Assembly: GCA_964016885.1 (NCBI GenBank)
Contig: OZ024740.1
Coordinates: forward strand, 181,040,001-181,104,000
DNA: 64,000 nucleotides
Source of the DNA: Eledone cirrhosa
Taxonomy: Eukaryota
Direction of reading: 5' to 3'
The notes beneath the pieces were generated by a model. It saw only the letters and a program-made list of their open reading frames with translations, had not been told where the DNA came from and did not search any database. Shown one piece after another: positions 2,800 through 62,506 of this stretch (position 1 is its first letter; every line of letters begins with the position of its first letter). Both the position numbers and the translations under genes were made by a program.

Positions 2800-5428
2800 A
2801 TGCTTCAAGCAAACTTCAATACTCTTTTATCCTTACACCTGAGCCAGGAATTGTTTGCATCCGTAAGGGAACTGTTTAGACTGTTGGAGAAATGGGCCAA
2901 TGCTGGCTGTCAAATTATTTTCCTGAAACGCTGCCTAAAAAACGATGTCATCCCCAACACCATCAGGAACATTCGCTTAACAGTAAGCCTACGTACACCA
3001 GCTTTCCAAAACACCACTAACCGCATACATCGCACGTGTATTAAACAGATCCTGAGACATCTCAACCGCCAATTACACGTCCATAAGCGGACACTGTCAG
3101 AGCGGACACATCGGCTGTCAATACCACCCGGCGACTTGCTCCTGAAAATCACTAAAGCAATCGACCAGTGCTTCCACTCCAGAGTCCAATACGAAAAAAA
3201 AAAGGATGCAAGCGAAAATATGAGTGGATCTTGTCGAAACGCCACAACGAGAACATCGACACTAACGAACAGATGGACCAGAACCACGTGGAAAACAACA
3301 ACTTAACAACCGCCAGCGCAGCATCCACCAACACCGATCCACACCTCAAAGTTGCGACGCACCTGGTCACCGACCTAACCGACACTCTCACGAGCGACGA
3401 GCTGAAACTCCTACACCTCGGACCCAAGTTCATCGTCTCACAACGTCTCGACGACAGACTCAAACTCAACATCGAGGCCAACTTTTGTCGAGCCGCTTAT
3501 CAACTTAAATGGGTGACCGCCATCAACAGCGCCACAGAAAATAACGGCGCCCACGCAACCCACCGCAAGTTCCCCACTTACCACCCCGACAACCCACTCC
3601 ACCCCCCACCCACCAACCACGAACTCGACACGAAACTCATCAGGCTAAAAGACTCCATCTCGGATATACTTCACAAGCACACACACACATCCACAACGCA
3701 TAACCTCACCAAATCTCAACTCACCACTCTCTCCAACCTAAAATCGAAGAACCTCATCTATCTCCCCTCCGACAAAGGAAAAAGAATTCTGCGTCATCAG
3801 CAGAGAGGCTTACATCACCCTGGCCCTCCAACACCTTGACGATGACAACCTCTACTCCAAGGTCACGGGAATCACTCCCGCGCAGATAGAAGAGCGCATC
3901 AACGCCGCCTGGACCAACATCTGCGACCGGCGGAAGCTCCCGAAGAAGCTTAGATACAACCTCCTCACGAGGAACAGCAGACTACCCGCCTTCTACCACT
4001 TCGTGAAAACACACAAACAGGGACCCGACCTGAAGATCAGGCCCATTGTATCGAGCGTGGAAGGACCACTCTACAAAATTTCATGACTCCTAGCCAGAAT
4101 ACTCAAACCCATCTTAGATACCTTGCCGGGACATGTTAACAGCTCCGAGGAGGTGTTGAACCGCCTGCATCAAATAGATCCCGACACCAGAAAGAATAAC
4201 AGATATGCCTTCAGCCTTGATGTAGTCGCGCTCTACACCTCGGTCCCGGCACTCCCGGCCGTCAATATACTGATGGAACCCGTCCAATCCACCGACCTAC
4301 ACAGCTTCGGGCTCACCACCACTGACATCCACCAACTCCTATCCGTCGTCGTCGACAACACCTACTTCGGATTCCTTGACCAAACATACCAACAAACCTC
4401 GGGATTGCCCATGGGATCAAGCCTGTCGGGTGTGCTAGCGATCTCTTACATGGACAACCTCGAGCGCAAGGCACTCAACGCCTGCCACCCCAACGCCGTC
4501 GCCTTTTTCTCAAGGTACGTGGACGATATCCTCATCCTCACATCTTCCAAAGACACGGCGAACAGAATCTATGAGACGTTCAACAACACGGACGAGAACA
4601 TTGACTTCAGTGTTGAACACCCCAACGAAGACGGGTCACTTGTCCTCCTCGACTTCCGAATCAACATCACGAAACAGGGAAGGATCCACTGCAACTTCTA
4701 TCGAAAGGCAGCCTGCAGGGAGCTGTTCGTTCACTACACGTCCGCCCTCCCTAACAGTGCCAAAAGAGGATAAAATGACGAACGAGATCGCGCGAATCAA
4801 AAACAGATGCAGCGATCCCGCGAGTGGTGTCACTCATACCAAGCGATTCCTCGAGGTGCTGGAAACGAACGAGTAACATACCTCGCTCACAGACAGAGTA
4901 GGAGACACCATACACAAGGGACAGAGAGGCACCCAAGGCAAGTGCTTCCTTAAAATGCCACACCTGAGCAAGAATACCACCAACGCTATCCGCAAGGCTA
5001 TACGGAGGGAGGACATCGACATCCACCAGGCCCACTCGGGCCCCTCCCTGCGAAGATGCCTCTCCAGGAAACCCGGGAAATCAACTGACTCGTGCTCCCT
5101 CAGAGACTGCTCGATACGCCATGCGAACTGTTGCCTACGCACATACGTCGTGTAAAAGATAGAATGTAACAAGTGCAACCAATACTATATAGGTAGCACA
5201 ATCCGACCTTTGCACATCCGGATCAAGGAACACACTAAAACCAGGGCCTCGTCTTTCCGGAAACACATAGACAAATGCGGAAACAATGACGTAAGGCCCA
5301 TTGTCACAATTCTAGCGACTGAAAGAAACATCGGCACGTTAAGTATCAAGGAAGCACTTTTTATCAAACGCCTAGAGCCGCAAATAAGCAATCGATCCGA
5401 GAGAAGCGAAATGAGGTGGTTGGTTTAA
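2800..5428 (+). pseudogene. PLE RT + GIY-YIG endonuclease, disrupted
   Basis: Motifs LLHLGPKF, YLPSDKG, RPIVS, SLDVVALYTSVP, GLPMGSSLS, RYVDD, and IECNKCNQYYIGST..IRIKEH..IKEALFI. Frameshifts (~3195, ~3780, ~4770, ~4876) and in-frame stops (4084, ~5153). Confidence 0.9.
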
Positions 5429-11234: not shown

Positions 11235-14200
11235 ATATATTTCTTTATTTGCCACATGGGCGTACAAAAATAGGACATTACAAGACGTGACGGCAGGGGT
11301 TTTACATAAAATCTGTAACAATGATAAATAACAATAAACTACATAAAAATAAAACAGTTGAGGGGGGGGGGGACGCTACTACGGGGTTCTTTTACACCCC
11401 GTGGATAGAACAACCCTCAACACTAGGAACACGTTTTTTAGGTGTTCCCGTCTTCCGTCTGTTTATCTTCCTCAACCTACAGGTTTATATACAGGGAAGG
11501 CCCATTCACCCGGGATATTTTCGCCACATTCACCCACCTTTCAGTGAATTGACTGGGGTGTAACCCCTCTCTCTCCACTCCCACCTTCCTTCTGAACTAG
11601 TAATTAAAGAAAGGGATAAGTTGTTGTCCAGAGAGAAAAGTGCTTGTCTCCGACCATTTAACCTCGTCCACCATATTACCTATTTCGCCACAGCCACCAG
11701 ACAGAGGATGACCGCCTCTCCTTTATTCTTAAATGAAGGCGGCGGGGTGATCCTCACGATGGACTCGGCTGACAACAGGACGTGTCCTACACGTTACAGT
11801 AGCTGTTCGACATAATTCCACAGGTCGGTCAATTTTGGGCACTGAACAATTGCGTGCAGAACGGTTTCGGTGTCCTGCTCGCATCTTCGACAGGTCCTTT
11901 TGGCAGGATCTCTGCCAGGGAGTCTGTGCCTGTAGAGTTCCTCGGTAGCACTGCCTGGCCAGAGACGGAAAGTCCTCTCGAACAGACTGGTCAGTTTGTC
12001 TTCCTCAATGCCTAGAGTTTCCCCGAGAACGTCGTCACACATATCCTCCCCTAATCCCCTATAGAATGTCTACGGTGAGTCTCCGCTGACTGCCGTTTCC
12101 GCATGGTAGAAGACTGTGAGCGCCTTAAGTCGAGGTGCCAGGCGCCCATTTTCGGTCTTCGCTTGACCCAGGACTGCAGGTCTGTTAGTGAGACGAGTTG
12201 TGGAAGAGCTCGTCTCACAAACGACAGCCACACCGGTTCGCCGTTCAGGAACTCCTGGAGAGGGCTTAGCCTCGGCGCGTGTTTGCGCATCATCACACAC
12301 GGCATGCCCAGCCCTCCGTTAGAAGGGTGTTGACAGCAGATGGATCTCCTCAACAATGGAGTCGGTTTCTTCCAGAGGAACTTGAAGAGTAGGCGTTCCA
12401 TTTTCGTGAGGTATTCGCGGGGACACGCCACGATTGTCAAGCGGTAGTAGATGACGGACGCTATGTCAGTCTTCGCCACCTCCGCTCGACCTTTCAAGAA
12501 GAGTTTACACACAGCCCACTTCTGGGTGAGTGCAAACCCCTTCGCCGTGACCGCGTTCCAGTTCTTGTCCACCCGGAGGTCTGGACGAAACCAGACCCCG
12601 AGCAATTTCACCGGTCCTTCCGTCCAGCGTCCAACGACACTGGCGGAAGGCATGGGTTTGCCTCACTATGTGCTGAGTTTCAAATCGACAGACTTGTTTG
12701 GGATTAGTCTTGCTCCTGTCAACATTTTGTATTCCTGTAATAGGTTGCCGATTACCTCGATGTCCGAGGTTTTCGACACCATTACGGTTATATCGTCGGC
12801 ATAAGCCGACGCAGCTTTCGCCAGTTCTGGTTCGATAGGGATGCCCTGCAACATCTCCAACTTCCGCAGTAATGGCTCGAGAGACAGTGCATACATAATG
12901 GAGAAGAGAGGGCACCCCTGACGGATGGAACGCATTATTTGGAATGGCTCCGATAGGAACTTTGACTGCCGAGTAGATGCTGGTGCGCAGGGCAGCGAAC
13001 CAGCCTCTGAAGACGGGACCGAAGCCAGCCGCCTTGAGAACCGCTTCCATGTTCAACCCTATCAAATGCTTTAGACTGATCTAAATTGATCACAGCCCCA
13101 TCGATGCCAGGTTTACACCCTACCCTCACTACGATGTATCGCATGAGGTGGAGTTTGTCGTGTATGGACCTGGTCTGGATTGCACACGTTTGCGCTTCCC
13201 CTACCACGTTCTCGACGACAAACGCCAGCCTCGCTGCTAACAACTTGGCCAAAATGTTAACTCTGTGTTGAGCAGAGTTATGGGCCTGAAAATGCTTATC
13301 TTATTCCTCTTGTTCTCATATTTCCTGATCAGCGTTACAACGTCTCTGCCTACAGAACTGGGAATCCTCCCGTTCTGCTGCCAGTTGCAGTATACCACTT
13401 CGAGGACGCCAGAGAACAAGTCTGACATGCCTATGTAAAATTCATAGGGTAGACCATCTAAACCGGGTGATTTGCGTTTCCCACAGCGGCCTAGGGCATC
13501 TTCCATTTCACCCGCTATGATCGGCCTTTCGCAGCTCTCTGCATCCATGCTCGAGAGCCGTGGTACGTCGTCGAGGTAGGCGCCGGAGTCCTTCACCTCC
13601 CTTGACGTAACACTTTGCCCGAACAGTTGTGCAACATTCTGCTGGAAGGCCGTGCACATTTGCTTGGATTCAAGTAGAATGCGTCCATCTTTGTCTTGCA
13701 AGGACAGAATTGTGGATTTGTTGCCACTTTTCGCCTCTGCCACTCGGGCCCAGCTAACAGTTTTGGTTCCTTCGTTTCTTAGAGCACGTGTTCTACTTCT
13801 GACAATACAAACTTCCTGTTTCACGTTGAAGAACTGGTCAAGTGCCGTTCCCGTCGCTAGCACGTCATCTGTACTGCCATTACTAAGTGCCTCTTCTACT
13901 TTAACTACCAGTTCCTTTTCGGTTTTGTTTTTTTCTAAAGCTACTTCCTTGCTGAAGGCTATCGATTCTATTCTAATTGCTCTCTTGAGAGAGCGCCACC
14001 ACCTGTTGTTGACGATCGCCCCCGTCAACTGGCACTTAACTAAGGTGATAATCCGTTTACTGTAGGCCATACGCGCCAGAAGCGACATGTTTAACTTCCA
14101 GTATCCGAGTCCCTGTCTATGTATCCTATCAAGGTTTACTATGCAGGTGACTAATTTGTGATCTGAATAGGCAACCATGTGCATTTGTGGTCAGCTTAAT

Positions 14201-14420: not shown

Positions 14421-14580
<160 letters not shown>

Positions 14581-17500
14581 TCCTTGAATCTCAGTCATTG
14601 ATGTTGGTTAACTGGAAAGTCCGTTGGATTGAATATCAAGCCATTACCTGCAGCCTCAGATATTCAGGACGTATCGGAGGGTTCTTGCTGTTCCAAGCAA
14701 GCATGCCTTTTGAAGCGTTCCAAAAAGCGTGAAGGGGCCGATTTTCTTTAACCATCCCTGGAAACCTTTGGAGATAGTCCCCAGTGCGCCTATGACAATC
14801 GGGATCACTTTGACTTCATGGCAGTTCCAAATCCTTTTCACCTCCCACTTTAGGTCCTGGTATCAGTTAATTTTCTCCCTCTCCTTCTCTTGCACTCTCG
14901 TGTCGAACGGGCAGGCCACATCCACAATCAGGCACGATCTTTTTTCTTTGTCCATAACCACCAGGTCAGGTCTATTGTGTTCCAGTTTTTTGTCCGTCTG
15001 TATCCTAAAATCCCACAGCACCTTCACCTGACTGTTCTCCATCACCGCCTCTGGCCTATGCTCATACCATTTCTCAGAATGTGGTAGATTGTTTACTTTG
15101 CACAGGTGCCAGTGGATCACCCTGCCCATCACATCGTGTCTCCAGCCCTTATAGTGGGTCTGGGCTAGGTGTTTACACTCGGACACAATGTGAGCCACAG
15201 TCTCCTCTCTCTCTCCACAGATCCTGCACAGTGGGCTAGCCTCCTCCTTGTAGATATGGTGCTTCAACCACTTCGTTTTGAGGGCCTGCTCCTGCGCAGC
15301 CATTAGCATTCCTTCTGTAGCCTTTTTGAGGTCTCCTCTTCTCAACCAGTTCCATGTCTGTGGATCTCTAAATTCAGTTTTCTCAAAGAAGGTACTATGA
15401 AGGGATTTTCCCTTAAGGCTGCTCTTCCTCCTTGATGTTATTTCCTCCTTGGACATCCCCTGGCCTACTGTCCCCTCCTTCAGTACAGTTCTGAGCATTG
15501 GCTCCTTACTATAGGTCACGTATTTGTATAGGTTGTTTTTCTCCATCTGAACACAGTCATCTATGCTGATAAGACCTCTTCCACCCTCAGATCTCCTTAG
15601 GTAGAGTCTATCGACATCACTCCTCTTGTGGAACATGTTGTAGATAGTCAATAGCTTCATAGTCTTCCTATCCATTTCTTTTTGTTCAGCAACATTCCAT
15701 CTCAGAATTCCCGCACTGTACCTAATAATAGACACAGCTCGGGAATTTACTGCGCTTATGGCATTTCTGCTGTTCAGATGTGACTTCAATACGCTCCTTA
15801 CTCTCCGAATGTATTCAGTTCTTAACAATTCCTTCATTTTTTTGTTCTTTATGCCATCAGCCTCCAGAACGCCCAAATACTTGTATCCTTCCTCATAGTC
15901 AATTTCCTTTATCATCTCACCTGTTGGTATCTGGATCCCGTTACTTCTGCTCAACCTACCCCTCTTCATCACAATGACTCCACATTTACCAATACCAAAC
16001 TGCATACATATATCACTGCTGAAAATACGGACAGTGTCAACAAGCACATCCAACTCCTTCTCACTTTTCCCAAAGAGCTTAAGATCGTCCATGAAGAGGA
16101 GGTGATTGATGGTAAGCTCTCCCCTTCCCAACTTGTATCCTGCTCTCACTTTTCGCAGCATAATGGTCAAGGGCATCAGGGCAAGGACAAACAACAGAGG
16201 GGACAGGCTATCTCCCTGGAAGATACCTCTCTTGATCTTCACGCTTCCCAAGGATACTCCAGTTGATGTCAACTCTGTCTCCCAGGACCCCATACTCCTG
16301 CCCAGCAACTGTCTGATGTTTTCTGCCACCCTGAAGACCTCCAGGCTTTTGGTGATCCAGGAATGAGGCACCATGTCAAATGCCTTTCTGTAGTCTATCC
16401 ATCCCATGGCAAGATCAGTGTGTCTCCTCCTGCAATTCCCCATTACCATCTTATCAATAAGCAACTGGTCCTTTGTACCACGTGACTTCTTTCGGCATCC
16501 TTTCTGTTCGTCCGGTAACAAGTTGTTTGTGTGGAGGTGATGGTAGATTTCCTCAGACACAATGCTCGTCAACAGTTTCCACATTACGGGCAGACATGTG
16601 ATAGGTCTATAGTTGGTAACATCATTACCCTTGATTCGGTCTTTCATTATCAGAACTGTGGTACCTTTTGTCAACCACTCTGGCACCTCACCCGACACCA
16701 AGCAGTCATTGAACATGGCCGTCAGCTTCGGGTGAAGGATGTTAAATGTTTAATCCAATACCCCTGCACACCATCTGGGCCTGGTGATTTCCAGTTGGTT
16801 AGTTTTTTGGCTTGCCCCTTAAGAGTTTCAACTGTGATACTCAAATCAGTCTGTTGTTGTGCCTTCTCACCGATCTCCCTCTGTACTGTCTCAATCCACC
16901 CTGCCTGGGCATTGTGTCTAACATCCTGCTCCCATATTCCTCTCCAGAATGTTTTAGCTTGTTCCGCCCCAGGGATCAAGTCGTTGCCTCTTTCTTTCCC
17001 CTCAAGCTGTCCAACCAGCATCTTCTGGTTGTTGTCGAACATGCGGTTCTGTTTATACTGACTGACTCTGTTCTCGTATCGCCTGATTCTGGCACTCTTT
17101 GCTACAATGCGTTGCTTCAATTACTCTATGATAATATTTAGCTTTTTACTCCTAGTTTTGTATTTTATTTCCAGTCTATTTTTAGTGCCTATGTTTTTTA
17201 GTGTCCCATTCAGTAGTGACTCAAGCTTTCCTATGTCATTTCTCATTTCCCCGATTTGCCCACTCAGTCGCTTCTTCCACCACGGCTCTGCTCTTTCTTG
17301 TCTGTTGTTTCCTCTCGCTTTTATACCAAGTAGTTTCCTCGCCGTATTTGCTGTTGCTTTGAGGATATTGTTGCACTGGTGAAGACTCCTCACCTCAAGG
17401 TATGGGATGACTTTGTTTACCTTAGCTGTTGTTTCTTTTAACTTTTTCCTGTCTACAAATCTTAGGTTCATAGGTCTCCCACTATCATTGTTCAATTCAT

Positions 17501-19126
17501 CTACCACTAAATTTAGGATGTCAACCGAATCTTGTCCTAGCCCGTCAGCATTCATCTCCTCAGAGGCCGTATCTCTGTTCCAGGTATTATTTATCTCAGT
17601 ATTCAGATCATTGTCTGCTTCGGGTGGTTCCTCCGTTCTCAGGACCTCCTCACCTTCATTTCCCACCGGCTCGCTTGTCTGGCATACTACACCCGCCATC
17701 TCCAAGCCATTCTCTCTGCTCAGTTCCTCCAGTTCCAGCTCGCTTATCCACCCATTAGTTCTTATTACCCGAGCCTGCCCGGCCAATTTTTGTTCATCTA
17801 ATTTAAATAAACCAATCTCGTTCCAGATGTTATGCATCCGTCTCCTGTAGCCCCTCTCCTTGGGGTTACTTTTCAGGTAGCATTGCATAACAGTTCTATT
17901 CAATTCTTTCGTCCAGTTGGTTCTGGCCCCTTTCCTTCTTCTTCTTCCTCCAACATCAGCAGTATTTGGTTGACAGTCAGGTTCCTGCTGCTGAGCCAGG
18001 GGGCACCTGTTGGGTGAGAGTCTGTCACATGACGTTCTAGTCTCCATTTCACCGTTATTCGAACTGTTTATGTTCGATATTTAAACACTCTTATCGAGGA
18101 TTGGCGAATGTATGTTTACATAGCCATCTGTGGATCCGCCATCCCACTTGGCCCTTGTGTGGCATTATCACCACGCTGTATACGAACACACATAAACAAA
18201 CAAACACACGGGCAGAAAGGGCCCCAAAAATGAATAAGCATAAGTTTCATTGTAATGTAGTATTCGAATGTCTGACTTAGTTTTTGTTTTTTAAGTTTTA
18301 CTTTTTCCCCCCTCTTCTCTGTCCGTCCGCCTGCTTCTCTCTTCATTCTTATTTTCTTTACGTTTTTGGGGTTTCTTTTTTTGTTTTTGTTTTTCTCTGT
18401 TTGTTTTTCTCGTTTTTTGCTGTTGTTGCTGTGCTGCTTTGGTTTTGTTGTTTGTTTTTTTCTTTTTTCTTTTGAGTCTATCTATATATTTTGATGCCTT
18501 CCTCTTTGTTAGTAGTAGGGATTCTATAATGTGGAAGTAGTAGCAGCCAGCAGGGAGAAGTGGGAGGCTGGCGGCGCTGGCGATACTGAGACAGTGGTGG
18601 TGGTGATGTCGATACCAAGGCAGTGGTGGCGGTGATGTGACCGTATTACTGTAGTGATGGTGCTGTAGCGGTGGCAGCAGCAGTGAAGGAGTCAAGGGGT
18701 GGTGGCGGCGGTGATGGGATAGTGGTGGTAATGATGGCCGTAGTGAGCGGTGGCGGTGAAGGTGAAAATGCTGTTGTGTTTAGTGTACACGGATGATGGG
18801 GTGGGTGGTGTATCTAGTTTCTGGTGTTGGTGAGTTTAGCTGTCCTATATAGTGTAGCCAGCGGAGAGGAGGGGGGGGGGGTTCTTCTTCTTCCATTTAT
18901 AGCCATTTTTTTTTTGGATATACAGTGTACAATACAAAGTTGAATATTTGAATATTTGAGCCTTATACCAATATATTTTGGGTCCGAATTTTTTGGGGCT
19001 CAAGCCGGGTGCTTTACGTAGCATTTGTACTAAGAGTTGTTATTTCACAAATGATTTAAATATGTTAAAAATTCAAAACTTACGGGAGCGATTTCATGAC
19101 CTCCGTCACCTCGTGCGTCTTCTTCC

Positions 19127-19130
<4 letters not shown>
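14581..19130 (-). mobile_element. R4/Dong-clade non-LTR retrotransposon, family A, apparently full-length
   Basis: Bounded by (TAA)n on both sides. ~1.08-kb 5' region, RLE-type ORF and ~75-nt 3' UTR. Confidence 0.9.
14656..18047 (-). pseudogene. Dong-type ORF (Myb-like N-terminus, RT, CCHC, RLE) with two nonsense changes and one frameshift
   Basis: WTKELNRTVMQCY, WKSPGPDGVQGYWIK, NYRPITCL, QGDSLSPLLF, LFMDD, CRICGEREETVAHIVSEC, RPDLVV..IVDVACP..K..YQDL. Lesions at ~17121, ~16735 and 14863. Confidence 0.92.
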
Positions 19131-19162
<32 letters not shown>

Positions 19163-19462
19163 GTTGCATTTATCTTGCTTTATGTTCATACGAGTTATCA
19201 CCAAGTCACAACCAGTGACCTCAAGAGACAACAAGATCCGCCATGTTCAAGAAAGAACATACATATTCACACATGCATCTTTAGTGTTTAGACTTGTGAT
19301 GTACTTATATTGACAGAATCTTCCTTAGTATATGGGCAGTTCCCATTAGTACTATCTTTTGTATTTCTCCTATACGCGGGTTTCCTGGGATTTGCGATAT
19401 GTAATCATTAGACCCCTTAGGTATCATTCCCAGAGCGCCTACAACCACTGGTATTGTTTTAG

Positions 19463-19464
<2 letters not shown>
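19163..19464 (-). mobile_element. Dong family B, 5'-truncated ~300-bp 3' end
   Basis: Near-identical to 19510-19810 and 24168-24468. (TAA)n on both sides. Confidence 0.9.
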
Positions 19465-19509
<45 letters not shown>

Positions 19510-19510
<1 letters not shown>

Positions 19511-22500
19511 TGCATTTATCTTGCTTTATGTTTATACGAGTTATCACCAAGTCACAACCAGTGGCCTCAAGAGACAACAAGGTCCGCCATGTTCAAGAAA
19601 GAACATACATATTCACACATGCATCCTTAGTGTTTAGACTTGTGATATACTTATATTGACAGGATCTTCCTTAGTATATGGGCAGTTCCCATTAGTACTA
19701 TCTTTTGTATTTCTCCTATACGCGGGTTTCCTGGGATTTGCGATAAGTAGTCGTTATACCCCTTAGGTATCATTCCCAGAGCGCCTACAACCACTGGTAT
19801 TGTTTTAGTTCTCAATTTCCACATTTTTCCAATTTCTATCTCCAGGTCCTTATACTTGCTCAATTTGTCAAATGTTTTTATAGATACATTCTTGTCTATT
19901 GGAAGAGACATATCAATTAGCAGGCATACCCTCCTTTGAAAGTCCTTCAATATTATATCAGGTCTATTTGCATCTATTTTTCGGTCTGTTTGGATGTTAA
20001 AGATCCACAAGATTGAGATGTGATCTTTTTCAAGTATTTGAGGTGGTTGATGTTCCCACCAATTCTTTTGATGGGGCAGGTCAAAATGCTTACACATTAT
20101 CCAATGTATGTATTGTGCAGCTCTGTCATGCCTGTTTAGGTATTCGGTTGGAGCTATAGGACTGCACATTGAAATTATATGGTCAATGGTCTCTGGTTGT
20201 TTTTTGCATACACGGCATAATGGGCTGCACCCATTTTTTATTATGTTGGCTTGGTAATTTTTTGTTGGCAGACACTGATCTTGTGCGGATATAATCAGTC
20301 CTTCAGTCTCCGATTTCAGTCCAGAGGATGCCAACCACTGATGGGTTAAAGTTTTGTCAACATCAGGATTGTTAGCTCGCTCTGGGTATTTTCCATACAG
20401 AGGCTTTTCTTGCCATTTCTTAGCCAGTTTCTGTAGCAGTTCTTTCTTTGCAGTTACTTTTACCTGCTTTGCTTTTTCTGTGTTTTCCATTTCAGCAGTA
20501 AATGGGACTTCTGAAATTTGTAGTCCATTACTGTATCTTTGTGCATCTTTTGTAATGGAATATGATCTTTTGGTGCTTTCGTGTTTCAAAACGAGTTTGA
20601 TCATCCAATCATGTGATTCCCTTAGATATGTGGATAATCCAATTGTTGCAGTTTTCAACGCAATGTCTAACTGGATTAACCCACGTCCTCCTTCTTTCCT
20701 AGGGAGATATATTCTATCTATGTCTGCCTTAGGGTGATGCATTCTGTGCATGGTTAAGAATTTTCGGATTTTTGTATCGAGCCTACGGATCTCTGTGCTT
20801 GACCAGTTGATGACATTGTAACTGTAGGTTACTACTGGTATGGCAAGCGTGTTTATGGCATCGATCCTATTCCTTGCATTCAATTCCGTTCTTAAGATTG
20901 CTCTGACTCTGCGGTAACATTCCTTCCTTATCCTTTCCCTCATTGTCGAGTGCTTGATTCCGTCTCCTTCACAAACACCTAGATATTTGTAAGTTTGTTC
21001 TTGATCAAGCTCACTTATCACGTTCCCCCGATCAAGATTAATGTCTGTACACTTCAGCAGCTTTCCTCTGGTGAACGTTGCTTTGGCGCATTTATCCAGT
21101 CCAAACTCCATTTTAATGTCATCACTGAACTGCTTCACAGTGGATAATAGCCCTAGCAATTGTTCATCATTTTTTGCAAATAGTTTCAGGTCATCCATGT
21201 AGAACAAGTGATTAATGGTTTTGTCATAGACTTTATATCCATGTTTTGTTTCATTGAGCATTTTACTTAATGGTATAAGTGCCATGCAGAATAAAAGCGT
21301 TGATAAAGAGTCACCCTGAAAAATTCCACAATTAATATTAACTTCTCCAGCTTCCAGTGATTTTGTTTCACTATTCAAAAGGAGTGTCGTTTTCCATGTC
21401 TTCATACTAAATGACAAAAACCTCCTGACAACGGGGGATATTTTGAAAATCCCTAAACATTTTTCAATCCAACTGTGCGGCAAACTATCGAATGCTTTTT
21501 TATAATCTATCCAAGCAATTGATAGATTTTTGTGTCTATTATGACAATCTTCCAGTATCATTTTGTTAACCAGAAGCTGACCCTTACAGCCATATGAGCC
21601 TCGTTTACACCCTTTCTGCTCAATAGGAAATAGGTCATTTGTTATCAGGTGGTCATATGTGTATTCAGTTACGACTGATGTTAAAATGTTATACATTGTG
21701 GTCAAGCAAGTTATGGGTCTGTAATTTTTGGGATTGTTTGTCTCATCATTCTACGGAAGCAGGAATGTAATGCCGTTAACTAGCCACGATGGTATCTTTT
21801 CTGGCTCCTTAACTATTTCATTGTAAAGTTGGGCTAACAGCTCATGAGCCTCTGTGAAGGCATTTATCCAAAAGTTTTGTATTTTGTCTTTTCCTGGGGA
21901 TTTCCATTTGCTGGTTTTTCTTAGAGCCAAGGGCAACTGTTCAACTGTTATATTTTCCCATGTTTGTTCCTCAAGGTGAGCTGTATCTTTCATTTGTCTG
22001 TCTATCCATGGGGCATGTATGTTATGAACTTTTTCTTCTTTAGTTTGTTTAACATATTCACCTACTTTATAGTTTGTTAAAATTTCTATGTCAGATGGGA
22101 GAAGGTTTATTTGGCGATTGATGTTCTCTTGCCAAGTAGATTTCTTGTGGGAATTCCTTTGTTTTTTCATCTTCACTCCACATAAGTGAGTGGTGACTTT
22201 AGCCGATGCATAATAGAGATAATTTAAATCAGTAATGTTTAGTTTGTTTGTGAATCTAATGTTTTTGAGAATTATGTTAGTCTTGTGTATTATCTTTTGG
22301 TTCTGTTTGGAGTTCTGGATCTTAGGGAGGGTGTCTCGTTCCCCCATGTCAGATTCTTTCATTTTCATCCATTCGATCATAATTTCATCCTTCAAGTTGT
22401 CAAGTTCATTCTCATTCATTTCTTTATCATTTACAATCTCATTGTTTTAATTTGGAGATTCATCTTGAGCATGCACTCCCTCCACTTTTTCGATCCTTTC

Positions 22501-24141
22501 TTTAATTTGTTCTGTTGTCAGTGATTCCGCCCCAACCCTGGGATTCGAAGTGTTACAATTTATCTCGTTTTCACTGACACATGTTTCATTTTCCCTTCGC
22601 TGACTTTGTGCTAATAGCTTGATCTGATCAATTTCTATATCAGTTAGTAACTTTTTTCTTACAATATTTCTTCGTATATTGGCTAGTTTGTTACTGTCAA
22701 TATAGCCTCTGTTTTCGGGATGTTTTTTTTTCCAGTTGATATATGTCTGTTCTGTATTCGATGTATTTGATGGGTAGTACATGGCAGTGTAGAAAGCCTC
22801 AAGGACTTCTTTATTATCTTCCCTTGACCATTTTTCTCTCTTTTTCTTTGGATTTCTTGGTGGTGAGCATGGAGGGCCAACAGTAGGAGTATTCCGATTA
22901 TGGGAGGTCTCCAGCTCCGAAGTGATGGGAAGGTTTGAACCATTAGCTGATTTTTCGACTCCAGTCTGGTTCCTCTCTGAGGGACGCGGCTCTTTTTTAC
23001 CCGGGTGACGGCCGATCCGGTATGAGATTTTATCATTAGACATTTACTTTATTTTGTCGCGTTTTATTCTTATCCGCCAAGGGGTAATCATTTCGTATTA
23101 CCACTTCTAGAATGAGTGTCAACCAAGACTAGAGGGGTCGTTCTCCCCTAGAGACACGGCTATTCCCCGCCGGCCGCCATCCCGGTATTTCTTGGTAACG
23201 GGGTTTTCTTATTGTTGTTGTTTTTTTAAATTGTTATTATCATGAGTGGTTCCTTAATGTGAGCATTGCTTGGCTTAAGAATGAAATTATTAATAATTGT
23301 CTCCACTCCAGGCACAAGGCCAGCAATCACCCAGTGCATTACAATAATATAATATACTTTTTGCTGTAGTTGCCTGTTATTGTTGTTGGCTATGTCGGTG
23401 GTGGTGCTGGGGCTTTTTATATTGTTGGTGAGGAAGGGGTGAGCCAGCAGTCCCAAAGTTGTTGATGTTGACGTTTGGCCGGTGGCCAGGTCACTAAGTC
23501 AATCTATTTATATCTTTTGCTAGCCTCTCCCTTGTCTAGTGATACCGCCACCTTCCCCTTTCTCTGTCAAGTTAACAGTGGAATAGTGGTGGTAGCAATG
23601 AAGGAGTGGTGACGGCGGCGATGGGATAGTGGTAGCAAGATGATGGATGGGGTGGTGGCGGCGGTGGCGTTGTGGTTCCTGGGTTTTGTGATATGTAGTA
23701 TCTATGAGTTTGTGTTCGTATGTTTAATATATATTGTGTTGACGTATTCCCGTAAAATTGGGATTAAACATTTTGTTAAAATTTGAGACAATAATAATAG
23801 TAATTATTATTACCATGCCGGGATTGATGGTGGTGGTGGTCAAATTGCCGTTATCTGGCTGTTATATTTAGTGTGATGGGATAGGTGGTGTATCAAGTTT
23901 CTGGTGTTGGTGAAATTGCTGTTATTTGGCTGTTCTATATAGTGTAGACAGAGGGTGTTTTCATCCATTTATAAACATTTTCTTTTTTGAATATAAAATG
24001 TATAATACAAAATTGAATATTTGAGCGATATAACAATATAATATGGATCCGAAATTTTATGGGACTTCATTCGGTGGTTTATGCAACATTTGTACTAAGA
24101 ATTGTTATTTCACAATTGATTTAAATATGTTAAAAATCAAA
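19510..24141 (-). mobile_element. Dong family B, near full-length defective copy
   Basis: Colinear with 24168-29036. Nonsense changes at ~22447 and ~21751, plus a 258-bp in-frame deletion at ~22039 (from the offset difference between the copies). Confidence 0.93.
19651..23043 (-). pseudogene. Dong family B ORF, disrupted
   Basis: ORF pieces 22447-23043, 21751-22419 and 19651-21705 match the 1216-aa protein. Confidence 0.92.
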
Positions 24142-24167
24142 ATTATTATTATTATTATTATTATTAT

Positions 24168-27100
24168 TTGCATTTATCTTGCTTTATGTTTATACGAGTT
24201 ATCACCAAGTCACAACCAGTGACCTCAAGAGACAACAAGGTCCGCCATGTTCAAGAAAGAACACACATATTCACACATGCATCCTTAGTGTTTAGACTTG
24301 TGATGTACTTATATTGACAGGATCTTCCTTAGTATATGGGCAGTTCCCATTAGTACTATCTTTTGTATTTCTCCTATGCGCGGGTTTCCTGGGATTTGCG
24401 ATAAGTAGTCGTTAGACCCCTTAGGTATCATTCCCAGAGCGCCTACAACCACTGGTATTGTTTTAGTTCTCAATTTCCACATTTTTCCAATTTCTATCTC
24501 CAGGTCCTTATAGTTGCTCAATTTTTCAAATGTTTTTATAGATACATTCTTGTCTATTGGAACAGACATATCAATTAGCAGGCATACCCTCCTTTGAAAG
24601 TCCTTCAATATTATATCAGGTCTATTTGCATCTATTTTTCGGTCTGTTTGGATGCTAAAGTTCCACAAGATTGAGATGTGATCTTTTTCAATTATGGGAG
24701 GTGGTTGATGCTCCCACCAATTCTTCTGATGGGGCAGGTCAAAATGCTTACACATTATCCAATGTATGTATTGTGCAGCTCTGTCATGCCTGTTTAGGTA
24801 TTCGGTTGGAGCTATAGGACTGCACATTGAAATTATATGGTCAATGGTCTCTGGTTGTTTTTTGCATACACGGCATAATGGGCTGCACCCATTTTTTATT
24901 ATGTTGGCTTGGTAATTTTTTGTTGGCAGACACTGATCTTGTGCGGATATAATCAGTCCTTCAGTCTCCGATTTCAGTCCAGAGGATGCCAACCACTGAT
25001 GGGTTAAAGTTTTGTCAACATCAGGATTGTTAGCTCGCTCTGGGTATTTTCCATACAGAGGCTTTTCTTGCCAATTCTTAGCCAGTTTCTGTAGCAGTTC
25101 TTTCTTTGCAGTTACTTTTACCTGCTTTGCTTTTTCTGTGTTTTCCATTTCAGCAGTAAATGGGACTTCTGAAATTTGTAGTCCATTACTGTATCTTTGT
25201 GCATCTTTTGTAATGGAATATGATCTTTTGGTGCTTTCGTGTTTCAAAACGAGTTTGATCATCCAATCATGTGATTCCCTTAGATATGTGGATAATCCAA
25301 TTGTTGCAGTATTCAACGCAATGTCTAACTGGATTAACCCACGTCCTCCTTCTTTCCTAGGGAGATATATTCTATCTATGTCTGCCTTAGGGTGATGCAT
25401 TCTGTGCATGGTTAAGAATTTTCGGATTTTTGTATCGAGCCTACGGATCTCTGTGCTTGACCAGTTGATGACATTGTAACTGTAGGTTACTACTGGTATG
25501 GCAAGCGTGTTTATGGCATCGATCCTATTCCTTGCATTCAATTCCGTTCTTAAGATTGCTCTGACTCTGCGGTAACATTCCTTCCTTATCCTTTCCCTCA
25601 TTGTCGAGTGCTTGATTCCGTCTCCTTCACAAACACCTAGATATTTGTAAGTTTGTTCTTGATCAAGCTCTCTTATCACGTTCCCCCGATCAAGATTAAT
25701 GTCTGAACTCTTCAGCAGCTTTCCTCTGGTGAACGTTGCTTTGGCGCATTTATCCAGTCCAAACTCCATTTTAATATCATCACTGAACTGCTTCACAGTG
25801 GATAATAGCCCTTGCAATTGTTCATCATTTTTTGCAAATAGTTTCAGGTCATCCATGTAGAACAGGTGATTAATGGTTTTGTCATAGACTCTATATCCAT
25901 GTTTTGTTTCATTGAGCATTTTACTTAATGGTATAAGTGCGATGCAGAATAAAAGCGTTGATAAAGAGTCACCCTGAAAAATTCCACAATTAATGTTAAC
26001 TTCTCCAGCTTCCAGTGATTTTGTTTCACTATTCAAAAGGAGTGTCGTTCTCCATGTCCTCATACTGAATGACAAAAACCTCCTGACAACGGGGGATATT
26101 TTGAAAATCTCTAAACATTTTTCAATCCAACTGTGTGGCAAACTATCAAATGCTTTTTTATAATCTATCCAAGCAATCGATAGATTTTTGTGTCTATTAT
26201 GACGATCTTCCAGTATCATTTTGTTAACCAGAAGCTGATCCTTACAGCCATATGAGCCTCGTTTACACCCTTTCTGCTCAATGGGAAATAGGTCATTTGT
26301 TATCAGGTGGTCATATGTGTATTCAGTTAGGACTGATGTTAAAATGTTATACATTGTGGTCAAGCAGGTTATCGGTCTGTAATTTTTGGGATTGTTTGTC
26401 TCATCATTCTTCGGTAGCAGGAATGTAATGCCGTTAACTAGCCATGATGGTATCTTTTCTGGCTCCTTAACTATTTCATTGTAAAGTTGGGCTAACAGCT
26501 CATGAGACTCTGTGAAGGCATTTATCCAAAAGTTTTGTATTTTGTCTTTTCCTGGGGATTTCCATTTGCTGTTTTTTCTTAGAGCCAAGCGCAGCTGTTC
26601 AACTGTTATATTTTCCCATGTTTGTTCTTCAAGGTGAGCTGTTTCTTTCATTTGTCTGTCTATCCATGGGGCATGTATGTTATGAACTTTTTCTTCGGCA
26701 CAGATCTTTTCCCAGAATTCTTGCACTTCCTCCTTGGGTGGTATTGATTTAGCAGTTATTGTTGACTTACCAATTTTTCTGTAGAAGTTTCTTTGGTTGT
26801 TTTTGAACATATTATTGTCCTTATAGAATCTAGATCGTTTTTCAAAGCGCCTTATACGAGCAGCTTTGGTCGACACTTTTTGCTTGATTGTTTCTATCAA
26901 CATGTCTATGTCACATGTTGATCTTATACTGTACTTTTTTTTCAATTTTCTAAGTTTAGTTTGTTTAACATGTTCACCTACTTTATAGTTTGTTAAAATT
27001 TCTATGTCAGATCGGAGAAGGTTTATTTGGCGATTGATGTTATCTTGCCAAGTAGATTTCTTGTGGGAATTCCTTTGTTTTTTCATCTTCACTCCACATA

Positions 27101-29035
27101 AGTGAGTGGTGACTTTAGCCGATGCATAATAGAGATGATTTAAGTCAGTAATGTTTAGTTTGTTTGTGAATCTAATGTTTTTGAGAATTATGTTAGTCTT
27201 GTGTATTATCTGTTGGTTCTGTTTGGAGTTCTGGATCTTAGGGAGGGTGTCTCGTTCCCCCATGTCAGATTCTTTCATTTTCATCCATTCGATCATAATT
27301 TCATCCTTCAAGTTGGCAAGTTCATTCTCATTCATTTCTTTATCATTTACGATCTCATTATTTTCATTTGGAGTTTCATCCTGAGCATGCACTCCCTCCA
27401 CCTTTTCGCTCCTTTCTTTAATTTGTTCTGTTGCCAGTGATTCCGCCCCAACTCTGGGATTCGAAGTGTTACAGTTTACCTCGTTTTCACTGACACATGC
27501 TTCATTTTCCCTTCGCTGACTTTGTGCTACTAGCTTGATCTGATCAATTTCTATATCAGTTAGTAACTTTTTTCTTACAATATTTCTTCGTATATTGGCT
27601 AGTTTGTTACTGTCAATATAGCCTCTGTTTTCGGGATGTTTCTTTTTCCAGTTGATATATGTTTGCTCTGTATTCGATGTATTTGATGGGTAGTACATGG
27701 CAGTGTAGAAAGCCTCAAGGACTTCTTTATTATCTTCCCTTGACCATTTTTCTCTCTTTTTCTTTGGATTTCTTGGTGGTGAGCATGGAGGGCCAACAGT
27801 AGGAGTATTCCGGTTATGGGAGGTCTCCAGCTCCGGAGTGATGGGAAGGTTTGAACCATTAGCTGATTTTTCGACCCCAGTCTGGTTCCTCTCTGAGGGA
27901 CGCGGCCCTTTTTTACCCGGGTGACGGCCGATCCGGTATGAGATTTCATCATTAGACATCTACTTTATTTTGTCGCGTTTTATCCTTATCCGCCAAGGGG
28001 TAATCTTTTCGTGTTACCACTTCTAGAACGAGTGTCAACCAAGACTAGAGGGGTCGTTCTCCCCTAGAGACATGGCTATTCCCCGCCGGCCGCCATCCCG
28101 GTATTTCTTGGTCACGGGGTTTTCTTTTTTTTTTTTTTTTTTTTTTTAAATTGTTATTATCATGAGTGGTTCCTTAATGTGAGCATTGCGTGGCTTAAGA
28201 ATGAAATTATTAATAATTGTCTCCACTCCAGGCACAAGGCCAGCAATCACCCAGTGCATTACAATAATATAATATACTTTTTGTTGTAGTTGGCTGTTAT
28301 TGCTGCTGGCTATGTCGGTGGTGGTGCCGGGGCTTTTTATATTGTTGGTGAGGAAGGGGTGAGCCAGCAGTCCCATAATTGTTGATGTAGACGTTTGTCC
28401 GTGGCAAGGTCACCAAGTCAATCTATTTATATCTTTTGCTAGCCTCTCTCTTGTCTAGTGCTACCACCACCTTCCCTTTTCTCTCTCAAGTTAACAGGGG
28501 AATAGTGTCAGTAGCATTGAATGAGTGGTGGCGGCGATGATGGATGTGGTGGGGTGGTGGCAGCGGTGGTGTTGTGGTTACTGATATAGTATCTATGAGT
28601 TTGTGTTCGTATGTTTAATATATATTTTCATTATATTTTGTGTTGACATATTCCCGTAAAATTTGAATTAAACATTTTTTAAAATTTGAGACAATAATAA
28701 TAGTAATTATTATTATGATGCCGGTGAAGTTGCCGTTATATTTAGTGTGATGGGATAGGTAGTGTATCAAGTTTCTGGTGTTGGTGAAATTGAAATTGCC
28801 GCTGTTCTATATAGTGTAGACAGAGGGTGTTTTGTTCCATTTATAACCATTTTCTTTTTTTGAATACAAAATATATAATACAAAATTGAATATTTGAGCG
28901 ATACAACAATATAATATGGATCCGAAACTTTATGGGACCTCATTCGGTGCCTTTATGCAACATTTGTGCTAAGAATTGTTCTTTCACAATTGATTTAAAT
29001 ATGTTAAAAATCAAAAAACTTACGGGAGCAATTTC

Positions 29036-29036
<1 letters not shown>
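24168..29036 (-). mobile_element. Dong family B, near full-length copy with intact ORF
   Basis: (TAA)n at 24142-24167 and 29037-29125. ~1.08-kb 5' region and 141-nt 3' UTR. Confidence 0.95.
24309..27959 (-). CDS. R4/Dong-type protein: Myb-like domain, reverse transcriptase, CCHC zinc knuckle, restriction-like endonuclease (1216 aa)
   Basis: REKWSREDNKEVLEAFY, KWKSPGKDKIQNFW, NYRPITCL, WIDYKKAFDS, GIFQGDSLS, LFYMDDLK, CRVCKKQPETIDHIISMC, NRPDIILKD..LIDMSVP..EKLSNYKDL. Confidence 0.95.
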   Translation of the reverse strand: MSNDEISYRIGRHPGKKGPRPSERNQTGVEKSANGSNLPITPELETSHNRNTPTVGPPCSPPRNPKKKREKWSREDNKEVLEAFYTAMYYPSNTSNTEQTYINWKKKHPENRGYIDSNKLANIRRNIVRKKLLTDIEIDQIKLVAQSQRRENEACVSENEVNCNTSNPRVGAESLATEQIKERSEKVEGVHAQDETPNENNEIVNDKEMNENELANLKDEIMIEWMKMKESDMGERDTLPKIQNSKQNQQIIHKTNIILKNIRFTNKLNITDLNHLYYASAKVTTHLCGVKMKKQRNSHKKSTWQDNINRQINLLRSDIEILTNYKVGEHVKQTKLRKLKKKYSIRSTCDIDMLIETIKQKVSTKAARIRRFEKRSRFYKDNNMFKNNQRNFYRKIGKSTITAKSIPPKEEVQEFWEKICAEEKVHNIHAPWIDRQMKETAHLEEQTWENITVEQLRLALRKNSKWKSPGKDKIQNFWINAFTESHELLAQLYNEIVKEPEKIPSWLVNGITFLLPKNDETNNPKNYRPITCLTTMYNILTSVLTEYTYDHLITNDLFPIEQKGCKRGSYGCKDQLLVNKMILEDRHNRHKNLSIAWIDYKKAFDSLPHSWIEKCLEIFKISPVVRRFLSFSMRTWRTTLLLNSETKSLEAGEVNINCGIFQGDSLSTLLFCIALIPLSKMLNETKHGYRVYDKTINHLFYMDDLKLFAKNDEQLQGLLSTVKQFSDDIKMEFGLDKCAKATFTRGKLLKSSDINLDRGNVIRELDQEQTYKYLGVCEGDGIKHSTMRERIRKECYRRVRAILRTELNARNRIDAINTLAIPVVTYSYNVINWSSTEIRRLDTKIRKFLTMHRMHHPKADIDRIYLPRKEGGRGLIQLDIALNTATIGLSTYLRESHDWMIKLVLKHESTKRSYSITKDAQRYSNGLQISEVPFTAEMENTEKAKQVKVTAKKELLQKLAKNWQEKPLYGKYPERANNPDVDKTLTHQWLASSGLKSETEGLIISAQDQCLPTKNYQANIIKNGCSPLCRVCKKQPETIDHIISMCSPIAPTEYLNRHDRAAQYIHWIMCKHFDLPHQKNWWEHQPPPIIEKDHISILWNFSIQTDRKIDANRPDIILKDFQRRVCLLIDMSVPIDKNVSIKTFEKLSNYKDLEIEIGKMWKLRTKTIPVVVGALGMIPKGSNDYLSQIPGNPRIGEIQKIVLMGTAHILRKILSI

Positions 29037-29125
<89 letters not shown>

Positions 29126-29215: not shown

Positions 29216-29715
29216 TTTGGTTTTGCTCAAATATCTGTCCAGCGAATCTTTCCTGAGACATTCTAACCACATTCCCAGATTATCGGAGTTGTGATCTCTC
29301 AATTCGGAAAAGTTGCAACTTTACCCGGAGTGAATCTCTGACCTCCTTGCTACGAACTCTATTGAGTAACCTTACTCTAAAGACCCTTCGGGGAACTCTA
29401 TGTCGGACGCTTGTATTTGCGATAGTATTATCTCGGGCACTTTGAACTTGAACGTGCTTTTAACATGTACATTAAAGCCGGCTTGCGTCAACCGAGAAGG
29501 TTTGCAATAGCATTTTGACTAGGTATATTTGATTCGGTTATACATCTTTATGTTTTGAGAGTACGTAAGTAGGGAAGTATTTTTCTTTTACAATCTCTAC
29601 CATATTGTAGTCTGAATTACCGTAGAAAGGCACAAACTACGAGGGGAATCATTCTAATGTTTTCATTAAAACCCTTTTACTGCCTTATTTAAATGGTAAC
29701 ATTTACTTAAATAAT

Positions 29716-29905
29716 TTTTTTCTACTTTTGGCACAAGGCCAGCAATCATCCCAGTGTATTACTGGTACTTTATTTTATCGACCCCGTAAGGATGAAATAC
29801 AAAGTTAACCTCGGCGGGATTTCAATTCAGACCATAACTCAGACCGTAACTCTTTGCTGCAAAGCATGGCGTCTGACCCTTTACCGATACTGACAGACCA
29901 CCGCG
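29716..29905 (-). mobile_element. tRNA-head SINE with 16-bp TSD
   Basis: Same family as 60777-60958. TSD CATTTACTTAAATAAT at 29700-29715 and 29906-29921. Confidence 0.9.
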
Positions 29906-30317: not shown

Positions 30318-31845
30318 GGAACTATATACAGGGATCCCGGACGATGAACTATATACAGAGATCCCGGACATGACTGCAGCCCAGATCGAAAAACTCCATC
30401 TGGTTCGACATATGTAGGAGAAGACAACTCCCAAATAAAGTTAAGCTCAACTACACCACTAGAAATAGCAGACTCCCGACTTTCTACCACCTCATCAAGA
30501 CCCACAAGAATAGTACTAAGACACAAATAAGACCCATCGTCTCTAGAATAGAAGGACCCCATACAAAATTTCCTGGCTCCTCTCCCAGGTCCTCAAGCCT
30601 CTACTCTCCACCTTTCCCGGGCATGTCAGTAGCTCCGACGAAGTCATACGTAGACTACACCAAATCCAGCAGAACAACTTAAACTAAACAGATACGCCTT
30701 TAGCCTCGACGTTCTCTCCCTCTACACTACAGTCCTCGCTCATCCAGATGTCAATATATTGACGGACTGCGTGGTCGCAGAGGACATCCACTGCTACGGC
30801 CTCCATCCGACGGACATACACCAGCTTTTGTCCTTCACAGTGGACAACACGCACTTCACCTTCCACCACCACACATACAGACAGACAACAGGATTACCCA
30901 TGGGATCCAGCCTATCGGGCCTGCTGGCCATCACCTGGATGAACCAGCTAGAATGCCGAGCCCTCAACACCTGCCATTCCCATACTTTCTTCACCCGATA
31001 TGTAGATTACATACACATCCTTACATTATCCCGTGAGGAGGCGGATAAAATATACACTACATTCTCTAGCATGGACGTCAGTACACAGTTCTCCATGGAA
31101 CACCCCGATGACCGCGGATCCCTATCCCTACTGGACTTCCAACTCAGGGTAACAGAGGAAGGCAACTTCCACACCTACTTCTATAAAAAATCCGCCGGCA
31201 GGGACCTGTTCGTACATTTCAGATCGGCCCTCCCAGTCGGCGTTAAGTTCGGATACATAAGGAACGAACTACACGTATGCAGAACAAATGCACCAACGCT
31301 AGAGACCGAGACACACACACCACACATTTCCTGGAAGTACTCAAACTGAACGGATACACGACATCCACCACAAACCGTGCCAGAAAGAACAGAGGACACC
31401 ACACCTGAGGCACTAACACTTGCTTCCTGAAGCTCCCACACTTCAGTGACGAAACAACAACAGCCATCCGCAGAACTATCAAACGAGAGGGCCTAGATAT
31501 CCAACTGACCCACTCAGTTCCTTCTCTACGCGAACAGCTAACCAAAAGACACTCCACCAGACATGACAACTGTTGCAGGCTAGCCAACTGCCCCATCAAG
31601 GACACAGACCTATGCCACCAGGCTTATATCGTATACAGACTAGAGTGCGACAAATGCAGCAACTTCTACGTAGGTAGCACCACCAGACCACTCCACATAA
31701 GAATAAAAGAACACCTCAATACTAACGCTTCCTCATTTAAGAAACACCTAGTTAAAGGCAAAAACACCGACAAAACCATAACAGTTAGGATAGAGACTTA
31801 GGAAAAAAACCTCGGCAATCTTAGAATTAAGGAAGCACTAATTTC
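30318..31845 (+). mobile_element. 5'-truncated Penelope/Poseidon-like PLE related to 2688-6086
   Basis: YKISWLL, TDIHQLLS..DNT.F, GLPMGSSLSGLLAI, RYVD, LECDKCSNFYVGSTTRPLHIRIKEH, IKEAL. Starts just after (TA)n with a 27-nt-period duplication (30318-30369). Confidence 0.88.
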
Positions 31846-43919: not shown

Positions 43920-44549
43920 AGGATTGGAAGCGTCGTTAGAGAATCGGACAACATGCGTTGTCGCCCATAGTTACATCCATTTATGTTCTGAATTCTTATC
44001 CCACCGAGGTTAGTTTTTCCTTTCATCCTTACTGGGTCGAACAAATAAAGTACCAGTAAGTGCATTACTGGTACTTTATTTCAATCTACCGGTAAAGATG
44101 AAAGGCAAAGTTAACATCGACGGGATTTGAACTCAGACCGTAAAGGGACGTAACTATGCGGGAAAGCATGATGTCCGACCCTCTACCAATACGGCCAATT
44201 CCCCTACGCCATCTGATACTAATAATTGTTTCTACTTTTTGGCACAAGGCCTCAAATTATACAGTGTATTACTGGTACTTTATTTTATCGACCCCGTAAG
44301 GACGAAAGGCAAATTTAACCTCGGTAGGCAAAGTTAAACAGATACTAGTAATTGTTTCTACTTTTGGCACAATACCAGCAATTAACCAGTACATTACTGG
44401 TACTTTATTTTATCGACCCCGTATGGATGAAAAGCAAAGTTAACCTCGGCGGGATTTGAACTCAGATCATAAAGGGACGTAACTATGCTGGAAAGCATTC
44501 CGACCCTCTAACGATACTGCCAATTCACCGCAAAACTGATACTAATAAT
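43920..44549. mobile_element. Cluster of four SINE copies (one plus, three minus)
   Basis: Plus ~43920-44059; minus 44064-44210, 44226-~44325 and 44353-44531. CTGATACTAATAAT-like sequence occurs three times (44212, ~44339, 44536). Confidence 0.85.

Positions 44550-62254: not shown

Positions 62255-62506
<252 letters not shown>

Follow-up and report, generated by a model that had tools for sequence, protein, structure and literature searches.

Mosaic 5' ends in two diverged Dong-type retrotransposon families of Eledone cirrhosa: evidence for sideways movement of a 5'-terminal module

Exchange of 5' untranslated regions (UTRs) is how lineages of long interspersed elements (LINEs) renew their promoters, and most of what has been established about it comes from mammalian L1. 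In mouse L1 the 5' UTR was reported to have a history different from that of the open reading frames (ORFs), the 5' termini to pass between co-active families, and the resulting mosaics to amplify (Sookdeo et al. 2013, PMC3600994). A swap of L1 5' UTRs by recombination with cellular RNAs has been put forward as a speculation (Law and Burns 2026, PMC13174262). For Bombyx Dong and Ascaris R4, a 5' ribozyme similar to that of hepatitis delta virus (HDV) was demonstrated, and in Bombyx Dong RNA it self-cleaves exactly at the junction between TAA and the element (PMC3774820). Here we describe a stretch of 64,000 nucleotides (hereafter, the window; C1:181040001-181104000) of the 3.0-Gb genome of the animal Eledone cirrhosa, the minus strand of which carries, between 14421 and 29125, four head-to-tail retrotransposon copies with TAA tracts alone as spacers. 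They represent two families of the Dong kind, A and B, sharing a 5' module. The explanation we favour, with a probability of roughly 85%, is that this module is the 5'-terminal part of a Dong 5' UTR which moved sideways, from B to A and later from A to a B lineage, likely by template switching of the enzyme between RNAs from families active together, or by deletion between neighbouring copies, and which likely serves as a promoter or in another 5'-end function.

The assignment of both families to the Dong kind is suggested by several features. In Pfam searches the reverse transcriptase (RT) domain RVT_1 was recognized with E-values of 8.6e-26 in the B copy called B2 and 1.2e-23 in A, and the Exo_endo_phos/APE domain was found in neither; the best relatives of B2 with solved structures were R2 proteins (E=3e-25, aligned amino acids 449-1065). 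Inspection by eye of the A/B protein alignment revealed C-x2-C...H-x4-C and RPD...D after the RT in both families, which we take to be motifs of the CCHC and PD..D endonuclease type. TAA tracts flank all four copies in the element sense, and (TAA)n precedes most of the 18 5' junctions read. A single RT-bearing ORF, no APE, R2-like relatives and a TAA target together fit the Dong kind of the R4 clade.

A 5' module common to families with diverged genes

Family A is represented in the window by a full-length copy of a young sublineage, A-young (14582-19129, minus strand, as are all features of the array), whose frame is broken between 16749 and 17121. Family B is represented by B2 (24169-29036), which is nearly full length, with the 5' end about 33 nt short relative to other copies; by B1 (19511-24141), which has a broken frame, is about 55 nt short at the 5' end and is devoid of a counterpart of 26697-26954; and by a 302-nt 3' stub (19162-19463), an extreme 5' truncation. 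The preliminary description of this DNA, made from the letters alone, had claimed that the 5' module of A can be aligned as DNA with both B copies, although the families are otherwise alike as proteins only. Both parts of this claim were borne out. BLASTN aligned A 18761-19161 with 28723-29091 (71% over 415 nt) and A 18770-19464 with 23858-24468 (78%; this match also takes in the B 3' stub), and a further patch beyond the 19129-18761 alignment pairs 18694-18758 with 23601-23666 at 79%. The motifs quoted in support of the homology lie at the places given for them, two occurring three times and one twice, with 0 expected in 100 shuffles.

No DNA similarity between A and B outside the module was found by BLASTN within the window. 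By BLASTP, protein identity is 40% for the region of RT and endonuclease and 26% over 84 amino acids at the N-terminus; an alignment of 623 codons gives 43.3% amino-acid identity and 31.5% agreement at third positions. At fourfold sites under identical residues the agreement between A and B is 25.7% (n=74) vs a random expectation of 24.3%. The leader with the start of the ORF (600 nt) is about 42% alike between A-young and B, and 85-87% alike between A-young and the older A sublineages, A-old. The module behaves in the opposite way: over 300 nt without gaps, A-young agrees with B sublineages in 79-83% of positions and with older A in 62-64%. In the same 300 nt a sublineage with an A-type core, X, is 91.5-91.8% identical to two sublineages of B, B-old and B-int, and the sublineages A-mid and B-c reach 97.3%, which may be taken as a rough hint that the donors were close in age to the recipients. 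The module is thus far more alike than the neutral sites of the genes, which are saturated, and a divergence proportional to synonymous divergence, as simple vertical descent had been expected to give, is ruled out.

Both limits of the module in A could be specified (A positions 1-455, 18675-19129). Other B copies begin about 33 nt upstream of the start of B2, at A's own 5' sequence; the homology therefore starts at the extreme 5' end of A, at 19129, since the B2 copy of the window is without those first nucleotides, and the start proposed earlier was corrected to this position. The proposed end at 18675 was retained. Along the A copy of the window, sharing of 11-mers changes from B-like to A-old-like at about 350-500, and alignments place this change near position 455, which is 18675; the B-derived character of this segment rests on the k-mer profile, the alignments and the tree described below. 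In B2 the module spans 28510-29036; the part that aligns with A is 29036-28723, and after it come an AT-rich insert and repeats rich in CACC.

Three older A copies, encountered upstream of other loci, resemble A in the core (85-88% identity) and in the 5' layout of module, CACC repeats, TATA-like block and A-rich tract, but their module is clearly different. In the A copy of the window, about 200 nt of A-specific UTR (18674-18476), inherited within the family and comprising CACC-rich repeats as well as a TATA-like block, separate the shared module from the A-rich tract (18475-18280). The coding region (14863-18080) consists of two open pieces, 17121-18080, with an ATG at 18047, and 14863-16749, which contains RVT_1. 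An ORF of 162 amino acids at 18291-18779, over the CACC and A-rich region, gave sub-threshold Pfam matches and was treated as non-coding low complexity. The intact ORF of B2 (24309-27959) encodes 1216 amino acids, with RVT_1 at 516-776 and R2 proteins as its nearest solved structures.

The module is abundant in the genome. In the genome search the best 40 candidates per query were scored. With a 630-nt query from A, the best 40 of 1571 first-look candidates were all 97-100% identical. Each of 29 other A loci compared with the window copy gave an unbroken alignment from the TAA tract through the module and the A-rich tract to the leader, reaching the end of the locus in 28 and spanning 1.7 kb in one; all of these A copies carry the module, and the window copy is not the one-off chimera that the preliminary description had considered. 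The 1077-nt 5' UTR of B2 retrieved 39 further copies, matching along the whole 1077 nt at 98-99% (best 40 of 1977 candidates), and the A-old module is likewise abundant (best 40 of 1610 candidates at 90-100%), being followed by an A-type core in 29 of 30 loci, interrupted in one and joined to a B core in none. A 15-nt module anchor occurs 2236 times in the genome, and its reversed form 0 times. As a positional sample we took the 30 hits of this anchor that come first along C1; all 30 lay on Dong elements of A type or B type (9 A-young, 2 A-mid, 4 X, 6 A-old, 1 B-c, 3 B1-type, 2 B-int, 1 B-old and 2 B2), with no solo module and no module on another kind of element among them. In both families the module is a constant component. 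Three loci with 3' ends 71-77% similar to those of A, considered as candidates for a third Dong family, proved to be short pieces alone, with no 5' end in which the module could be sought.

Several variants were encountered among these copies. A sub-variant of A-young with an internal duplication of A positions 164-489 was present in 3 of the 30 sampled loci (L114, L125, L141), and UTR duplications or internal deletions occur also in L129, L134, L130 and L124. The 5' junctions vary among L127, L122, L119, L084 and L138; in some copies (TAA)n gives way directly to CGCAC, and in others a (GAA)n run takes the place of GGGAAGAAGA. Variable 5' junctions are known for R2, and the variation of Dong junctions seen here resembles them. 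A contig from a sequencing run labelled as a different organism (X5) contains 3750 nt of B2 (24597-28351) with 67 differences and 5 gaps, indicating that a close relative has nearly the same B family.

Mosaic lineages and conflicting trees

Swapping of 5' UTRs between the families is supported by two chimeric lineages, each of which joins the 5' part of one family to the body of the other. Lineage X comprises four of the 30 sampled loci (L113, L119, L120, L128). Its elements start with about 700 nt of 5' UTR of the B-old type, ending just before the TATA-like block of B, which is followed by about 10 unmatched nt and then by A-old UTR from position ~172; the core, through to the 3' end, is of A type and shares 90-92% of its positions with A. 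A 121-nt query covering the joint was recovered at no less than 98% identity in 40 of 40 among the matches listed, on six contigs. Lineage B-c (L115 and L151-L162) has the reverse composition: the first ~615 nt of its 5' UTR are of A-mid type and contain the CACC repeats specific to A, a short stretch of similarity (AATT.CTA.T) marks the joint with B position 329, and the core downstream is that of B, at 94-98%. Its joint was spanned by 33 of 40 among the matches listed, the remaining 7 containing the B half alone, and the A-type part was at least 200 nt long in 10 of the 12 B-c loci compared. The presence of A-specific repeats inside B-c indicates the direction from A to B, and the composite form of X the direction from B to A. 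In both cases the joints lie at non-homologous positions and the homologous segments are duplicated. X and B-c are amplified mosaic lineages rather than single loci.

The trees built from the two parts of the elements disagree in the manner expected of swapping, as had been proposed from the window alone. In the core tree, A and B form separate clades, both with 100/100 support, and the order within A is A-old, X, A-mid, A-young. In the module tree, A-old is separated from all other sequences at 100/100, X stands beside B-old, and A-mid, B-c and A-young form a group, again at 100/100, which is nested among B-old and X. When approximately unbiased (AU) tests were applied to the module, a single group of all elements with an A core was rejected (log-likelihood difference 118, p=1.6e-9), as was a group of X, A-mid and A-young without B-c (p=9e-7), and placement of B-c outside A-mid and A-young was weakly rejected (p=0.037). 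The X copy at L113 is closest to A-mid and A-young in both trees. Such a position would fit a history in which a single B-to-A capture gave rise to an X-like ancestor, from which the 5' UTR of A-mid and A-young may have descended by way of two internal deletions.

Some features of the data set weigh against this interpretation. The copy numbers given above are lower bounds. The trees comprise 33 rows, a small and partly hand-picked set in which the A-old rows lie on a long branch, and names were assigned to the sublineages after the BLAST results had been seen. The core trees were built from the 600 nt of leader and ORF start rather than from the RT domain, and collinearity over the full length with A or B was established by BLAST for X, A-mid, B-old, B-int and one B-c copy only. 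Moreover, the A-old and B-type modules are themselves distantly alike, at 60-66%, rising to 80-88% in the first ~80 nt by BLAST, and this likeness points to some shared constraint or to a still older exchange. Finally, with respect to the mechanism, a deletion of about 4-5 kb between adjacent copies could equally yield both chimeras.

Origin of the joints and alternative explanations

Template switching is a plausible mechanism of the swap: an RT copying the recipient RNA would leave it within its 5' UTR and complete the copy on the donor RNA. The main alternative is that the chimeras were made in DNA, by illegitimate deletion or unequal exchange between head-to-tail neighbours in (TAA)n; in the simplest form, 4-5 kb would be lost between a donor copy and a recipient copy lying directly downstream in the same TAA array. 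In the window, as in many other loci, A and B are immediate neighbours pointing the same way, one deletion from an upstream UTR to a downstream UTR would give the donor's 5' end with the recipient's body, and the short similarity at the B-c joint is of a kind compatible with this origin. Both chimeras retain the exact 5' end of the donor and the whole body of the recipient, which fits template switching and array deletion alike, and so do the ~10 unmatched nt at the X joint. The behaviour of R2-type reverse transcriptases, which can jump from one RNA's end onto another, and the argument advanced for mouse L1, according to which chance recombination between two competent copies is unlikely (PMC3600994), led us to rate switching somewhat above deletion; the latter argument is weaker for young copies arranged in tandem. 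An origin in DNA is a serious contender, which we would put not far short of even odds.

If exchange of this kind recurs, the Dong families of this genome, all of which insert head to tail into the same TAA tracts, might constitute one recombining population with respect to their 5' ends, the arrays being arenas in which a promoter-bearing front cassette is passed repeatedly between families whose genes can no longer be aligned. We advance this broader proposal tentatively and regard it as rather doubtful at present. Were it true, concerted evolution of promoters would extend across families, and the borrowing of a neighbour's front end could save a family from silencing or decay.

What the module does is a separate problem. 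Three TATA-like motifs are kept in A-young and B, and a role at the DNA level, presumably as an internal promoter, appears preferable to a ribozyme, since the Rfam search, a structural descriptor and an alignment fold all failed to give one. The competing possibility is that an HDV-like self-cleaving ribozyme at the 5' end cuts unit-length RNA out of read-through transcripts of the array and that the module was exchanged as a processing cassette. The precedent of Bombyx Dong, with cleavage at the TAA/element junction (PMC3774820), speaks for it, as does the presence of head-to-tail elements with a common 5' terminus. Nevertheless, Rfam yielded no ribozyme match, either for 15 kb or for the 5' termini of the two families when E-values up to 10 were admitted; the matches to a loosely defined double-pseudoknot descriptor were all AT-rich and inconsistent between lineages; and the fold of the first 150 nt in an alignment of 11 5' ends (RNAalifold) amounted to -2.9 kcal/mol with 0 compensatory pairs. 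HDV-like ribozymes may evade all three methods, as their J1/2 can be hundreds of nt long, and with this reservation we consider the ribozyme improbable.

Vertical descent alone, with an ancestral 5' UTR held similar in A and B by purifying selection on the promoter and with fast divergence in the older A, is still harder to sustain. It would account for the 5' terminus and the well conserved first ~110 nt common to all sublineages, and for the similar layout of A-old and B-type UTRs (module, CACC repeats, TATA-like block). Against it stand the rejection of A-core monophyly on the module by the AU test and the physical chimeras X and B-c, with their non-homologous joints and duplicated homologous segments. 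Within lineages the 5' UTR evolves faster than the core, which makes strong constraint unlikely and renders a module identity of 79-97% between families with saturated synonymous sites unexpected. Selection without transfer is thus a very improbable account of the similarity.

The preliminary description had also proposed an A-rich linker between module and core in both families. The A-rich tract of A and an A23 run in B2 (28146-28125) do exist, though neither marks a joint. A-old, X, A-mid and A-young all have the tract, which comes after the TATA-like block and before the leader; being common to elements with either type of module, it predates the capture. It does intervene between module and leader in A as described, together with the A-specific UTR, which the earlier account had left out. 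In one A-old sublineage an antisense short interspersed element (SINE) and a (CAG)n run are found inside the tract, which therefore tolerates insertions; the antisense SINE is a whole copy of the tRNA-type SINE of the window in L061 (2845-3040) and is partly deleted in L067. In all B sublineages read, the counterpart of the tract has a length of 22 nt. The A23 run is peculiar to the B2 copy of the window; 28 of 28 other B2 copies have A8CAACA5GA4 instead. Every B UTR read contains, just upstream of the A-rich stretch, a 55-nt sense fragment resembling the 3' tail of the window's tRNA-type SINE (28262-28208 in B2, 23342-23288 in B1). Copies of this SINE, ending in (ATT)n, are located at 29710-29902, 44059-44549, 46960-47104 and 60777-60972, with several clustered at 44 kb. 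The true joints are found at A ~455 in the window copy, at B-old ~700/A-old ~172 in X and at A ~615/B 329 in B-c.

A separate polyadenylated non-coding retroposon or RNA that was fused to Dong cores and left its tail behind as the A-rich tract would be in keeping with the position of an A-rich stretch just upstream of the family-specific leader in A and B and with the jumping of R2-type enzymes between RNA ends, but this suggestion is not supported and seems very improbable, given that 0 of the 30 sampled modules stood alone or on a non-Dong element, that the joints lie away from the tract, that A-old elements have the tract with the other module type, that the A23 run was found in one copy, and that two Tx1-type APE-bearing elements of one array had no module when three arrays (70 kb) were searched with four versions of it.

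The array, its surroundings and comparison with known systems

The tracts that delimit the copies were located mainly with Tandem Repeats Finder. The (TAA)n target tract 5' of B2 occupies 29037-29125 (TTA on the plus strand; confirmed in the sequence), a (TAA)9 spacer separates B2 from B1 (24142-24168), a (TAA)n tract follows B1 (19464-19510), another lies 5' of element A (19130-19161), and the (TAA)n tract at the 3' end of A (14421-14581) is followed by (GAA)n. When B1 and B2 are compared with the adjoining tracts (19484-24168 vs 24142-29059), their 3' 2.5 kb are 98% alike and their 5' 2.1 kb 91%; this unevenness may reflect a faster-changing 5' part or a mosaic within family B. Just downstream of the TAA tract of A, on the minus strand, three GC-rich open frames of 203, 191 and 317 amino acids (12054-14190) gave no Pfam match. 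Penelope-like elements, with open frames containing RVT_1 and GIY-YIG, are present at 30457-31800 (plus strand), 58713-62577 (minus strand) and 4087-4770 (plus strand); the segments 3966-4751 and 30457-31234 are 65% alike.

For annotation, a practical consequence of the mosaicism is that similarity of the 5' UTR is unusable for assigning these copies to families. The copies form a natural system for asking whether the joints form while RNA is reverse-transcribed or at the DNA level within tandem arrays, and for finding the functional cassette within an invertebrate LINE 5' UTR of about 1 kb.

With the TAA-specific R4 clade, and with Bombyx mori Dong in particular, the elements described here have in common a single ORF, with RT followed by a CCHC/PD..D endonuclease region and no APE found, and also insertion into (TAA)n in one orientation and the formation of tandem arrays (Xiong and Eickbush 1993, cited from PMC3774820). 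They differ from Bombyx Dong in their 5' UTR of ~1 kb and in the ribozyme, which was shown to cleave in Bombyx and was not found here in silico. The proposal of Law and Burns (PMC13174262) resembles our interpretation in that a LINE would renew its promoter by joining the 5' part of another RNA to its own body; here, unlike in that proposal as set out there, the donor would be the UTR of another LINE family, and the intermediates exist as amplified lineages.

The closest parallel is provided by mouse L1, in which, as here, the histories of 5' UTR and body conflict and mosaic families have been amplified; the candidate mechanisms named there, DNA recombination, an RNA/DNA heteroduplex and strand switching by RT, are also those to be considered for Dong (PMC3600994). 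Unlike in mouse L1, the partners are R2-like, site-specific elements with an endonuclease of the restriction-like (RLE) type, and they are far more diverged, with 43% amino-acid identity and saturated synonymous sites; they share one microsatellite target in fixed orientation, transfer has taken place both ways, and composite intermediates are preserved. In our literature searches, which covered sources other than subscription journals, we found no report of 5' UTR exchange in Dong or other elements of the R4 clade. Transfer of 5' ends between families is itself known from mouse L1; what stands out here is that the partners are so deeply diverged, that transfer ran in two directions and that intermediates are preserved.

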